IMG/VR virus record: IMGVR_UViG_3300042196_000418
Source of the DNA: a virus
Taxonomy: Duplodnaviria; Caudoviricetes
Reading direction: 5' to 3' (one strand)
DNA length: 64,000 nt
A program made the position numbers and the translations under genes. Shown piece by piece: positions 1 to 49,651 of this stretch; the stretch's first letter is position 1, and each line of letters starts with the position of its first letter. The notes below the pieces were generated by a model. That model worked only from the letters and a program-made list of their open reading frames with translations. It had not been told where the DNA came from and made no database searches.

Positions 1-45
1 GAACTACCCGGGGTCGACGATCGCGCAGTTACGCGCGGGCGCGAA

Positions 46-61
46 CGGCACGCGAGATGCT
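46..61 (+). promoter_or_regulatory. sigma54-type -24/-12 promoter P1
   Basis: CGGCACGCGAGATGCT (GG-N10-GC); truncated upstream box half ACCC at 6-9; ATG at 75. Confidence 0.7.
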
Positions 62-74
62 CATGTCTTGGAGC

Positions 75-449
75 ATGAACGAGCCTGTCGACCTCCAGCC
101 CTCGATCGAGAAGTTTGGCCGCGAGACCTGGGAGGTCAAGCGCATGCGCCTCGACGCAGAGTGGGCGCCGCTCGTCGACGAGAAGAACCGCAAGGTGCAT
201 GGCTGGGCGCATATCGAAGAGATCCCGGCGCGCATGCTGGGCCGCGTGCTCGAAAGCGGCTCGACGCGCTGGACCCTCAGCTCCAAGCCGTTCGGCGTCC
301 AGCTCATCGCGACCCGCGACAACAAGGGCTTCGGAGCGAGCCCTCCCACGACCTGGTACGCGACCCGCGAGGACGCGCTCGCGGGCGCTCGCAAGGCGCT
401 CGTCCGGCAGGGCAGACGCTACGCGAAGAAGTACGGAGGCGCGTCGTGA
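75..449 (+). CDS. hypothetical protein
   Basis: ORF 57..449; ATG 75 chosen because it lies just after the promoter. Confidence 0.65.
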   Translation: MNEPVDLQPSIEKFGRETWEVKRMRLDAEWAPLVDEKNRKVHGWAHIEEIPARMLGRVLESGSTRWTLSSKPFGVQLIATRDNKGFGASPPTTWYATREDALAGARKALVRQGRRYAKKYGGAS

Positions 450-742
450 TCACCGACGACCAGCTCAAGGCCATGAACCCGGAGATGGCCGCGATGTGGA
501 TCGTCGGCTCCGCCGCTTCGTTGTCCAAGCCGCAGTACCAGGCGCTCGTGATCGCGTGTCGCAACGGCGGTTACGTCGAGGCGGGCGGCGTCGAACGCGT
601 CTCAGCCGCGGCACTGCTCGCGCTTGCCCGCCGCGGCTACCTCGCCCGCTGCTATGGCACGGAGGGCGGCCTCGCCGGCCGGCTCTCGGAGCGTGCCCGA
701 ACGCGCCTCGCTGACGTCGCACCGAAAGGACAGGTTCCGTGA
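446..742 (+). CDS. small protein, ITDDQL N-terminus, winged-helix-like C-terminus
   Basis: GTGA overlap; VITDDQLK...ALARRGYL. Confidence 0.6.
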   Translation: MITDDQLKAMNPEMAAMWIVGSAASLSKPQYQALVIACRNGGYVEAGGVERVSAAALLALARRGYLARCYGTEGGLAGRLSERARTRLADVAPKGQVP

Positions 743-1032
743 ACAGCCTCACCGGCATGGATGCAGAGCTGGCCCGGAGCAAGCGTGCTCGCGTACGCCG
801 CAAGCGCTCCACGACCGTCGTGTTTCAACGAATCCACAAGGGGCTGTACATCAGCCACGAGTACGGCATGACGCTCAGCCACGAGGCAACGTGGTCTCGT
901 GACGCGGGCCGCAAGTGGGAGCTGACGTTCAAGCTCAGCTACATGGGCTTGATGGAGTCGTCGACGCACCGCAAGAAGTTCGACACCATCAAAGAGGCGC
1001 GCGCCTACGCAAACGCGTTGGTGCGGAAGTAA
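739..1032 (+). CDS. hypothetical protein
   Basis: GTGA-coupled ORF. Confidence 0.6.
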   Translation: MNSLTGMDAELARSKRARVRRKRSTTVVFQRIHKGLYISHEYGMTLSHEATWSRDAGRKWELTFKLSYMGLMESSTHRKKFDTIKEARAYANALVRK

Positions 1033-1035
1033 CCC

Positions 1036-1497
1036 GTGGCGCCGTCCGTCGAATTTGTCTGTCCAACCTGCGACGCCCAAACCGGCGAACCGTGCCGCTC
1101 TGTGGCTCCGCGATCGATCCGCAACCGCACGAAGTACGACACGCCAAAGGCCCTCAAGAAACTCCACGCCAACCGCGTGGCTCGTTGCTACCGCGCACCA
1201 ATGGCGCCTGTGACGGCGTGCGGTCAGCGCGGTGGCGCCGACTCCGAGCATTGGAACGACGTCCGATGCGCCACCTGCCTGGCCAAGCAGCCCGAGATCG
1301 CGCTCCACTACGCGCGCTACTGCGGCACCGAGTTCGAAGCGAACCTCGAAAATTCACGGATGCACGACTACTTCGACGACTGTGCCCAACAGTGGGGCTT
1401 CGAGGACTGGACTGCACTCCCTAACGACAAGCAGCTCTTGGTGCGCAAGGCGTTCGACGAAGGCCGCCGCGCCGAGCGCGCCCTGAGGAGCGGTTAA
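1036..1497 (+). CDS. phage-type zinc-finger protein
   Basis: CPTCDAQTGEPC...HANR and CATC motifs. Confidence 0.55.
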   Translation: MAPSVEFVCPTCDAQTGEPCRSVAPRSIRNRTKYDTPKALKKLHANRVARCYRAPMAPVTACGQRGGADSEHWNDVRCATCLAKQPEIALHYARYCGTEFEANLENSRMHDYFDDCAQQWGFEDWTALPNDKQLLVRKAFDEGRRAERALRSG

Positions 1498-1505
1498 CCC
1501 GTGAT

Positions 1506-1636
1506 GGGTGCACAGATACCCGTGTCTTGGACGCCTCGGGCGCCTCGGATTTGCCGTCGTACAGAGACGGGTATCGATGCACCCAGGCTCACGCATCGCA
1601 CACTTGAAGGAACGGTAGAGCGGCACGTGAACTGCT
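1506..1636 (+). promoter_or_regulatory. promoter P2: two GGGT-N8-ACCC boxes plus sigma54-type core
   Basis: boxes 1506-1521 and 1569-1584; ACTT 1602; CGGCACGTGAACTGCT 1621-1636; ATG 1650. Confidence 0.8.
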
Positions 1637-47306: not shown

Positions 47307-47374
47307 CCATGTGATTTCGCACGACGACGCATCACGAAAGCCTGCGAATGATCTCGCGCTTCGTGACTCGGGCA

Positions 47375-47513
47375 GTAACAGATCGGGCTGTCGGCCGCGT
47401 TGTTTTGTTACCTTCGGATGCCCTAGGTAACAGAACGGGTCGGTCGAGCGTCTGATCTGTTACCTATCGGCGCGTCGAGTAACAAAACGGACCGCTGCGA
47501 CGGTGTTTGTTAC
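47375..47513. repeat. three tandem GTAACA...TGTTAC dyads, 52-bp period
   Basis: 47375-47411, 47427-47463, 47479-47513. Confidence 0.85.
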
Positions 47514-48112
47514 TCCCTGTGTTGGGAAAGGTACGTCGTCAAGGTGCGTGGCTTGAAACGCTTCCCGCGTATCCCGCCCTCGTAGAGTCGCTGGGACATC
47601 TCGGTGGCGCCGACCTCCCATTCGAGCATCTTCAGGAAGACCTCGTGCTTTGCGACCGACGGTGTGCGTCCTGCCTTCGACGGCCAAAGCTTGTCCAACT
47701 GCTCTGCGTGCCATTGCAGCGTCGTTCGGATCAGCTCGGCCGCGTCCAGGAGCGTCGCGGCTTGCCGTCGAAGATTCTCGCGTATCCCGCCTTCCACGAG
47801 CTGATCGAGACGGCCCTCGGTGAGTCGCATATGCGGGCCGTCGTGTTTCCACTTCAGCTTGTCCAGGATCACGCTGCGCGCGTAGCGCGAAGGTTTCACG
47901 TCGCGAAGCTGGTACTTGAAGGTACTGAGGCCCTCTAGAAGATCGGCGCTCCGATGAGCAGCGTGGCCTTCTCTCTCGATCATGTCCGCAAGCCTCGTCG
48001 CCTCGTCGCGGAACTTCTTCTTGTCGAGATCGCAGACAACCGAGATCCAGGCGGTCAGCGCTTTCCAGTCCTCTTTCGTCGCAGGCTCGAACTTGCGCTG
48101 CTTCTTGGCCAC
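47510..48112 (-). CDS. hypothetical protein
   Basis: 200-aa ORF inside the transposon. Confidence 0.6.
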   Translation of the reverse strand: MAKKQRKFEPATKEDWKALTAWISVVCDLDKKKFRDEATRLADMIEREGHAAHRSADLLEGLSTFKYQLRDVKPSRYARSVILDKLKWKHDGPHMRLTEGRLDQLVEGGIRENLRRQAATLLDAAELIRTTLQWHAEQLDKLWPSKAGRTPSVAKHEVFLKMLEWEVGATEMSQRLYEGGIRGKRFKPRTLTTYLSQHRE

Positions 48113-48269
48113 TTGCCGAGATCGTCGAACGGCCGATCGCGCGGCGCAAAAAAGAGCGTGGCGTTTCGTCGGTTACGTAAGCACGTCGAGAAGTGCGCAA
48201 CCCTGAAAAGGAACGAATGCAGACGCATCCCTTCGAGACCGAGCTGCGGCTCTTTTCCGGTCGCGCGCT

Positions 48270-48313
48270 GTTCTACTTCTGTCCGCTACCTCAAAAGGCG
48301 ACAGAAGTAGAAC
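48270..48313. repeat. right subterminal GACAGAAGTAGAAC copies
   Basis: inverted at 48270-48283, direct at 48300-48313. Confidence 0.85.
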
Positions 48314-48432
48314 TGCGCAGCGTTCAACTAGAGTCGCGTTACCTCAAAACCCATGTCGGTTCCCTAAAACCCCCGATTTCCGACGAGGTTTTGGGGCACA
48401 CTCACGACGTCTTCCCGTATCACTCCTGCAAC

Positions 48433-48510
48433 GGGTACCTTGATACCCAGGTGTCCTTGCGCGGACTTGCCTGCTTCACTGGGCTTTCCCAGCCCGGCAC
48501 GCTGCGTGTA
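48433..48510 (+). promoter_or_regulatory. promoter P6 (variant)
   Basis: GGGT-N8-ACCC 48433, ACTT 48465, CGGCACGCTGCGTGTA 48495-48510 (-12 GC replaced by GT); ATG 48523. Confidence 0.6.
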
Positions 48511-48522
48511 CTACCAAACAGC

Positions 48523-49651
48523 ATGACGACCGTAACGATCGACACCAGCAAGAACGACGACACGAGTAACCTCATGGTCCAGATCAAGCTCCGTGATCGC
48601 GACCTCAACGCCAAAGGCAGCGGCACGGAGGAGCATCGCCTCGTCGTGCTACTCGACACCGCGCCCGAAGATCCTACCGTCATGGGCACGGGGCGAGCGA
48701 AGTGGGCACGTGACTGCGCGGAGCGCGTGACTGGCGACTGGCTGCGAATGGATTTCCGCGCGGCGAATCGCAAGTGTGGCGAGCGTGGATGGGTCCCGAT
48801 CGGCACACTCGTGATCGCGATCGACAAGTCGATTCGCGGCTACAAAAGTGAGGGACGTGCAACCTACGCGCTCGGTGTCGTCGGCGCCGATGCGGAAGGA
48901 AAGACCAAGATCACGTGGAACCTGCCCGGCAAGGACGGCCACGTTAAGGTCGAGTCCAACGGATCGGGTTGGACGCACACGATCGTGTACCAGGGTCGCC
49001 GCTACGAGGTGCGATCGTGAACGCCCGCGACATCGAGAAGCAGATCCTGAACCTCATCGAGTCCTCGTTCGAGGACACCCGCGTCCCCGACGCGATCGCC
49101 GCGCACGCCGACAAGCGCACAGGCAAGTTGGTCACCAAGACCGACGCGGAGCAGCTCGAAGCACAGCTCGGAGTCCCCGTGCGCATCCTGCGCCGGTACG
49201 GCATGACGCAGGTCGCGAAAACGGGTATCGAGATCCAAGCAGTGACCTCTCCGATCAACGCAGCAATCGACGCGGCAACCGGAGCCAGCACAAGTACCGC
49301 CACACGATTCATCGAATGGGCCACGCGCGAGCACTGGGGCATCGAGCACGCGCCCGTGGCGTACCAAAAGGCGCTCACCGCCAAGGAAGCACAGATCTGA
49401 TGGGCACAAAATCGACGCGCAAGTACCCGCGGTGGATCGTCCTCTACTACATCCACACCCCCGGTTCGACGTGGCTCGGAAAGGGCGTGGAGTTTTTCGA
49501 CGACGAAGCGCCTGCGCGTGAGCGTGGTCGCGTAACAAACGGCACCAGCCGCCCGTTCTATCCGCCCTGGGATCGCCAGTACCTGGGCGCCGCACAGGGG
49601 CACGCCAACCCTGTAGCCTTGACGGCCTACCTTCAGGAGTACCGGCCGTGA
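48523..49651 (+). CDS. three coupled hypothetical genes (48523-49020, 49017-49400, 49400-49651)
   Basis: stop/start overlaps after P6. Confidence 0.6.

Follow-up and report, generated by a model that had tools for sequence, protein, structure and literature searches.

Does a virus hand whole trains of its genes to sigma-54, a transcription system that stays fully off until an ATPase activator fires? The question is raised by a 64,000-nucleotide stretch of the IMG/VR virus record IMGVR_UViG_3300042196_000418 (Duplodnaviria; Caudoviricetes), the whole of which we refer to as the window, where one promoter-like cassette recurs six times (P1 to P6). Described strategies of phage takeover act mainly through sigma-70 or through phage polymerases, and sigma-54 control is barely documented for viruses. 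Judging from the layout of the cassettes and their conservation in related elements, we consider it likely that they are enhancer-dependent sigma-54 (RpoN) promoters of the host type. It is probably the ATP-dependent sigma-54 machinery of the host that turns on the trains of small genes behind them.

A preliminary description of the window had listed five exact copies of a core, CGGCACG-N4-MTGCT, and one variant, all of which we found where they had been placed. The five exact copies (P1 to P5, Table 1) all lie on the + strand, against 0.08 expected, and none of 100 shuffled windows reached five. GG-N10-GC is present in each of them; the variant core of P6, CGGCACGCTGCGTGTA, has GT in place of GC at −12. 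A palindromic box, GGGT-N8-ACCC, occurs 13 times in the window (0.5 expected), nine times within the six cassettes. The proximal box starts 53 bp before the GG in P2, P4 and P5, 54 bp before it in P3 and 63 bp before it in P6, which are the spacings reported earlier, although a mismatch in the P3 box (GAGT...ACCC) had gone unmentioned. In P1 the window edge reduces the proximal box to ...TACCC (window 1-9), at a position that fits 53 bp. The second, distal box, said to lie 53 or 63 bp further upstream, precedes the proximal box by 63, 53, 53 and 63 bp in P2, P3, P4 and P5, and the tetranucleotide A(C/G)TT does start exactly 20 bp ahead of the GG in P1 to P5. Downstream of each core come a + strand start codon and a run of small co-oriented open reading frames (ORFs), in agreement with the view that every copy heads a train. 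A loose E. coli-type consensus with two mismatches allowed was found 31 times in the window against 27.6 expected, with no overall enrichment. Thus, the signal resides in the specific cassettes and is not a general effect of composition.

Related loci were fetched by two routes, a 685-aa protein encoded just before P5 and a DNA pattern consisting of the distal box and its GTRTCT flank only. Relatives of the 685-aa protein number 117 and lie on metagenomic contigs as long as 531 kb, and the window's own copy sits on a contig of 328,796 bp, which together indicate a huge uncultured phage-like element. The metagenome scan with the distal box and its flank returned mainly chance matches and about a dozen true family loci. 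In a box-anchored test the palindrome served as the sole anchor, and GG-N10-GC was counted at each offset from 16 to 130. In the family loci GG-N10-GC peaked at +53/+54 from the box (18 of 122 oriented boxes; the other offsets average 1.3), and the peak was retained without the window (15 of 96). Secondary peaks at +106-118 are due to distal boxes. Unrelated control loci displayed no GG-N10-GC peak at +53/+54.

Comparison of about 30 cassettes from 17 related loci, in which GG and GC occur in every copy because the search required them, revealed strong conservation of CACG and TGCW, both of which the search had left free. Variation among the relatives affects the 4-nt spacer and positions −26 and −15 (for example CGGCACGCGAACTGCT, TGGCGCGGCGGTTGCT, TGGCCTGTGATCTGCA, CGGCACGCGAAACGCA and AGGTACATATTTTGCT). 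Conserved GG, GC, CACG and TGCW around a variable spacer is the known information profile of sigma-54 promoters. Scored against TGGCACG-N4-TTGCW, the window cores fit six of the eight positions other than GG and GC, and the cores of the relatives fit five to seven; the window cores deviate by C at −26 and C at −15. Validated sigma-54 promoters of Myxococcus xanthus read TGGCACG-N4-CTGCT, TGGAGCG-N4-CTGCT and CGGCATG-N4-TTGCG (PMC9765219 Table 1). Both of the deviating bases occur among them, so the window cores match known variants. The first 12 kb of the window contain no excess of sigma-70-like sites, and a sigma-70 reading of ACTTGC plus core was rejected on sequence inspection, as no acceptable −10 lies at 16-18 bp. 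The distance to the box stays fixed while other core bases drift, and this computational evidence supports the earlier identification of GG-N10-GC as a putative sigma-54 core.

Two further sets of cores were noted. A cassette variant with the perfect consensus core TGGCGCGGCGGTTGCT and a box-to-core distance of 63-74 bp is found at L034:5183-5330, L201 and L255, and recurs at seemingly one orthologous position in several relatives. An unrelated viral contig with 68% G+C, L022 (IMGVR_UViG_3300031237_000187), contains two CGGCACG-N4-CTGCTCTA cores on the − strand, about 900 bp apart, each with ACTTAC 5-6 nt ahead of it and with no GGGT-N8-ACCC box. This may be another phage using sigma-54-type promoters.

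The distances between the conserved elements fall into discrete classes. Across the roughly 30 cassettes, the two boxes are 33, 53-55, 63-64 or 74 bp apart and the box-to-GG distance is 53-55, 62-63 or 74 bp, with no intermediates in either series. We aligned eight orthologous P5-type cassettes, which in the relatives precede the same gene with a basic N-terminus. The alignment consists of islands (distal box with GTGTCT, proximal box, CTTGC, core and ATG) separated by unalignable sequence, and the length differences, of 10-11 or 21 bp, occur only between islands. Length variants in steps of ~10.5 bp would leave all sites facing the same side of the helix, which is what enhancer-dependent activation requires. 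The paired palindromes, spaced in such steps, are therefore predicted enhancer sites. This supports the earlier proposal of helically phased enhancer boxes, for which the quantised distances and the orthologue indels are the evidence.

The boxes show additional regularities. GT(G/A)TCT(T/C)(G/C) always comes directly after the distal box and not after the proximal one, at window positions 1522-1529, 4524-4531, 9262-9269 and 23085-23092 and in the relatives, and the distal box begins 1-5 nt past the stop codon of the preceding ORF. A single GGGTA-N6-TACCC box also occurs in a different setting (window 38968-39073). Downstream of it come a sigma-70-like TTGCAC-17-TAAAAA and then the ATG of a 312-aa protein, the N-terminus of which resembles a signal peptide. 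This implies that the box-binding protein may also act at a promoter that is not of the sigma-54 type.

The region between proximal box and core was inspected for a site of DNA bending. In each cassette a 13-mer starting 24-27 nt past the proximal box start was scored against the IHF consensus WATCAANNNNTTR. It lies at +25 from the box start and has 3.4 mismatches on average, compared with 5.5 for random 13-mers given the same choice of four offsets (Mann-Whitney p ~1e-16, a value that overstates independence since the cassettes are homologous). The best IHF match of the whole 40-bp interval lies at the same place and in the same orientation in about two thirds of the cassettes. Of 31 sites, 30 have C at position 4 and 28 the final R, with each T of the TT kept in 27-29. 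Less GC-rich relatives contain a perfect site, AATCAAGGTTTTA (L035), or one with a single mismatch (L035, L158); the window copies, with 2-4 mismatches, match only weakly and are not flanked by A/T-rich DNA. The additional helical turn of the 63-bp class falls between this 13-mer and the core. The preliminary assignment of ACTT to an IHF-like site is thus a reasonable one, given how far the 13-mer ending in TTR stands above random, weak as the window copies are.

Placement of the start codons is similarly constrained. The first ATG or GTG lies 12-15 nt past the GC in 22 of 30 cassettes, and in the window the GC-to-ATG distance is 14 nt in P1 and P2, 20 nt in P3, 13 nt in P5 and, counted after GT, 13 nt in P6. 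P4 is the sole window copy with a longer leader, its likely ATG standing behind a GAAAGG ribosome site. Sigma-54 transcription usually starts 11-13 nt past the GC. A start codon 12-15 nt past the GC would therefore give messages with 0-4 untranslated nt, which are nearly leaderless. According to the independent gene calls of JGI and ENA, the cassettes of the relatives occupy intergenic gaps, each immediately upstream of the gene that opens a train.

Two relatives encode a bacterial enhancer-binding protein (bEBP), of 332 aa in L035 (379-kb contig, 18672-19670) and of 323 aa in L360 (428-kb contig, 8001-8972). Both proteins comprise Sigma54_activat (PF00158, E 5.5e-63), AAA_lid_14 and HTH_8, a Fis-type helix-turn-helix (HTH), and have no sensor domain. 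They contain the Walker A motif GETGCGKE, the Walker B motif LFLDEIGE and the loop GAFSGA, a conservative T-to-S change relative to GAFTGA. The closest solved sequences are ZraR (1ojl, E 4e-70) and NifA (9qq6). Their nearest cellular counterparts are ~600-aa FHA-domain bEBPs from metagenome-assembled genomes (MAGs) of Kofleriaceae (Myxococcota), with 80-83% identity; the next cellular match has 51%. The viral protein starts exactly at the AAA+ boundary of the Kofleriaceae protein, and identity amounts to 88-92% in the DNA-binding domain, 85% in AAA+ and ~20% in the linker. By sequence comparison, the protein of the relatives derives by truncation from an FHA-type bEBP of Kofleriaceae. The MAGs that carry the FHA-type bEBP also carry rpoN, which, taken together with this kinship, points to a myxobacterial, sigma-54-rich host. 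In L035 the bEBP gene lies within a cassette-headed train (boxes at 14680 and 14713, core TGGTCCGCAATTAGCA), an arrangement that would give positive feedback.

HTH-only relatives of the bEBP tail are mostly fragments, and none is found on the window's own contig. One of them, P0255, is a 100-aa protein consisting of only the C-terminal Fis-type HTH of the bEBP, 75% identical to the L035 tail, on a 47,200-bp family contig that also carries P0094; it could compete for the enhancer boxes or pre-mark them. Nothing similar to the palindromes was found near the host bEBP genes. When contigs of the source samples were compared with the Kofleriaceae bEBP gene, the result was uninformative, as AAA+ motifs conserved in many organisms dominated the matches.

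Several observations count against reading the cassettes as host-type sigma-54 promoters. P6 has GT at −12, and the related cassettes are homologous, so that their counts do not represent independent events. In a few cassettes there is a ribosome-binding site that would be left out of a message starting 12 nt past the GC (L035:14766), and the proximal site, centred near −70, is nearer to the core than in most model promoters. The searches of this element for bEBP, rpoN, sigma and polymerase genes covered the 64-kb window. They returned no rpoN gene and no bEBP (tblastn with a bEBP, and hmmsearch with a 40-bEBP profile in all six frames), and an NtrC-family activator, for which the preliminary description had proposed a search, is encoded in L035 and L360 and not in the window. 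The host is deduced solely from the bEBP gene of the relatives, and NCBI bins one family contig with the Gaiellaceae. These belong to Actinomycetota, which to our knowledge lack sigma-54 as a phylum. Among the best 120 matches, the short bEBP occurs on 2 of ~15 family contigs of at least 200 kb, which makes a phage-borne activator an accessory. Finally, although the DNA-binding domain of the phage bEBP is 88-92% identical to that of the host protein, three Kofleriaceae MAGs (28 Mb) contain no box pair and 0-2 single boxes, no more than a control pattern. The link between this bEBP and the boxes is therefore only tentative.

Part of this evidence would also fit a model in which the cores are sigma-54 promoters and the palindromes are operators for another element-encoded regulator, such as a repressor, a timing switch or a DNA-binding-domain-only protein, with a bEBP acting from solution or from other sites. 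The boxes are universal in the family, whereas the phage bEBP is sporadic among the best 120 matches; the candidate host genomes have no box pairs; the HTH-only protein P0255 exists on a family contig; and the box at 38968 precedes a sigma-70-like promoter. We regard this model as unlikely. Strict phasing of boxes and core across indels of 10-21 bp would be needless for a simple operator 45-110 bp upstream, and the IHF-like site between box and core fits looping.

Other explanations abandon sigma-54 altogether. Huge phages often carry transcription machinery of their own, and the cassette might serve an element-encoded sigma factor or RNA polymerase, its −24/−12 likeness being convergent or coincidental. 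The core (GGCACGCGA.CTGCTCTA) is more uniform than the sigma-54 consensus demands, and a fixed distance to the start codon suits any promoter of leaderless genes. However, even the divergent cores of the relatives keep exactly the sigma-54 invariants and spacing, and upstream sites, an IHF-like site and a core arranged in this way are specific to sigma-54 systems. Acting on sigma-54 is, moreover, the sole known function of the relatives' activator, and Pfam/PHROG annotation of the window revealed neither a polymerase nor a sigma gene. An own transcription system thus appears quite improbable as the user of these cassettes. We give still less room to the idea that the repeats are no promoters at all, and instead are junctions for recombination or module exchange, RNA-level signals for processing or translation control, or replication or packaging sites. 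Their position exactly at gene-train junctions amid mosaic gene content would suit such roles, and the palindromes could in principle fold into short hairpins. Yet every copy is oriented like its downstream genes, conservation is confined to discrete DNA-recognition islands with helical-phase indels, and the core fits a known promoter class at all informative positions. The palindrome stems measure only 4-5 bp, and no Rfam family matches the window.

From the architecture, its conservation and phasing, and the activator gene in relatives, all observed here, we infer the following steps of binding and transcription for a host-type sigma-54 promoter. The cassette would fill the ~145 bp that separate the stop codon ending one train from the start codon of the following one. 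Host RNA polymerase with sigma-54 would wait as a closed complex on YGGCACG-N4-YTGCW, and a dimeric HTH protein, most likely the DNA-binding domain of a bEBP, would occupy both GGGTA-N6-TACCC palindromes, centred near −70 and near −123 or −133. With the palindromes on the same helix face, a hexameric ATPase could assemble there, and an IHF-like bend at (T)TC-N6-TTR, centred near −47, would carry it to sigma-54. The promoter would be opened by ATP hydrolysis, with transcription starting 0-4 nt before the start codon, and the small, mostly orphan genes of a train would be read from messages almost devoid of a leader. For this element the activator would be a host bEBP or one encoded outside the window; some relatives carry their own sensor-less bEBP, truncated from a Kofleriaceae FHA-type activator.

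A more comprehensive scenario can be offered only tentatively. Huge (200-530 kb) viruses of Myxococcota might run early orphan-gene trains, nearly leaderless, from a private sigma-54 regulon built of virus-specific GGGTA-N6-TACCC enhancer pairs, an IHF-type bend and the sigma-54 of the host. Some members would have captured the host's FHA-type activator and cut off its sensor, which would make the switch self-contained and, in L035, self-reinforcing. Members without an activator gene, such as the element described here, might instead be gated by host signalling through the full-length FHA activator.

Classical sigma-54 promoters with two activator sites and IHF are glnAp2 and glnHp2 with NtrC, nifH with NifA and Pu with XylR. 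The cassettes resemble them in a GG-N10-GC core that fits TGGCACG-N4-TTGCW, in two dyad sites predicted to share a helix face, in an IHF-like site between sites and core, and in an implied dependence on an AAA+ protein. They differ in being compressed to ~145 bp with the proximal site centred near −70, in being repeated nearly identically through a viral genome, and in a start codon 12-15 nt past the GC. In addition, some relatives of the cassette come with a captured sensor-less activator. That activator resembles PspF in consisting of only an AAA+ sigma-54 interaction domain, lid and Fis-type HTH. Unlike PspF, the proteins of L035 and L360 arose by recent truncation of an FHA-type protein of Kofleriaceae, have GAFSGA and not GAFTGA, and come from a virus-like element.

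On the myxobacterial side, the organisms are rich in bEBPs, including the FHA type (PMC9765219). The regulon of Nla28 in Myxococcus xanthus has similar core variants and tandem activator sites within a few hundred bp upstream (PMC9765219). Nla28, however, binds 8-bp direct repeats, CT[C/G]CG[C/G]AG, and many of its promoters are intragenic and far from a start codon (PMC9765219), whereas the sites described here are GGGTA-N6-TACCC palindromes.

A phage-like element driven by sigma-54 had been called unusual in the preliminary description. This is a fair statement, but the situation is not unprecedented. Pseudomonas phage YuA has sigma-54-dependent promoter(s), and ONT-cappable-seq recovered a sigma-54-like one, P015, according to PMC10914365, which cites Ceyssens et al. 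2008. YuA leans on host sigma-54 for part of its transcription, as is predicted here. It is a 58-kb siphovirus with a few such promoters, and the YuA passage of PMC10914365 describes neither a conserved enhancer cassette nor a phage-borne activator, whereas in the present family of elements, 200-530 kb in size, a cassette with predicted paired enhancers stands at the head of many gene trains. YuA was the only published phage precedent for sigma-54 that our literature search returned, and it turned up no account of such an enhancer regulon under sigma-54 in huge phages.

If the sigma-54 reading is correct, gene trains placed behind such promoters would be under a tight all-or-none switch, shielded from host shut-off as well as from control by sigma-70. 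To couple a predicted sigma-54 promoter to the start codon with almost no leader would in itself be unusual. The 145-bp cassette offers portable parts, namely paired enhancer sites, an IHF-like site, a core and a leaderless start, with a sensor-less activator in some relatives. These parts could help to study the timing of huge-phage genes and to build tightly closed expression systems. The cassette could also help host prediction, as only sigma-54-bearing phyla would qualify.

P6 is divided by an insertion element that lies between its distal and proximal boxes and is flanked by the 8-bp target duplication CGACGTCT at 42601-42608 and 48405-48412. Removal of the element and one copy of the duplication leaves the distal box at 42574 only 55 bp before the box at 48433. 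Thus, P6 is a sixth complete cassette and joins P2 to P5 in having a second upstream box. The insertion element is no part of the promoter; it interrupts P6. Besides the transposase (Table 1) it carries several HTH genes, and its − strand block spans 43.7-48.1 kb. A 292-aa protein with HTH_8 and winged HTH (Fis-type and IclR-type HTH, 46428-47306) was considered as the box binder and rejected, since it lies inside the insertion element and is unrelated to the bEBP tail. The transposase gave no help in linking the element to a host, with identities of at most 33% and matches in 6 of 401 Myxococcota genomes.

Table 1 Positions of the six cassettes and of the insertion element in the window.
Feature	Span	Strand	Distal box	Proximal box	IHF-like 13-mer	Core	Start codon	Remarks
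P1 (cut by window edge)	1..77	+		5-9 (3' half, TACCC)		46-61	ATG 75	AGTT 27-30; GG 47-48; GC 59-60
P2	1506..1652	+	1506-1521	1569-1584	1594-1606	1621-1636	ATG 1650	
P3	4508..4651	+	4508-4523	4561-4576	4586-4598	4614-4629	ATG 4649	
P4	9246..9405	+	9246-9261	9299-9314	9324-9336	9351-9366	likely ATG 9403	
P5	23069..23214	+	23069-23084	23132-23147	23157-23169	23184-23199	ATG 23212	
P6 distal box	42574..42589	+	42574-42589					parted from the rest of P6 by the insertion element
P6 remainder	48433..48525	+		48433-48448	48457-48469	48495-48510 (variant)	ATG 48523	
Insertion element	42609..48404							5,796 bp; perfect 16-bp terminal inverted repeat TGAGTGTGCCCCAAAA; 8-bp target duplication
SWIM-DDE transposase	44761-46125	−						within the insertion element

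The window has a G+C content of 63%. Trains of small + strand genes, frequently with 4-bp overlaps, make up nearly all of positions 1 to ~42 kb and resume at 48.5 kb. Mapping of the intergenic gaps by G+C at third codon positions (GC3) or by ORF cover was too noisy for use. Comparison of window positions 1-24000 with a phage GenBank collection by megablast gave no match. Scans of IMG/VR with the core pattern, the 685-aa protein and box pairs gave chance matches or unrelated repeats among the matches listed, and on these matches the family seems absent from that collection. Among the sequencing runs listed for this DNA, none is of RNA. Relatives of the element are numerous in soils and sediments, and their gene content is highly mosaic. 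Most window genes belong to no Pfam or PHROG family; those with a family match include a metallophosphoesterase, an ABC-like ATPase, an FkbM methyltransferase, a DUF6884 protein and DnaJ. The DnaJ is full-length, with J domain, zinc-finger domain and C-terminal domain (window 56644-57762), and strongly matches the phage protein family phrog_14336 (E 1e-103).

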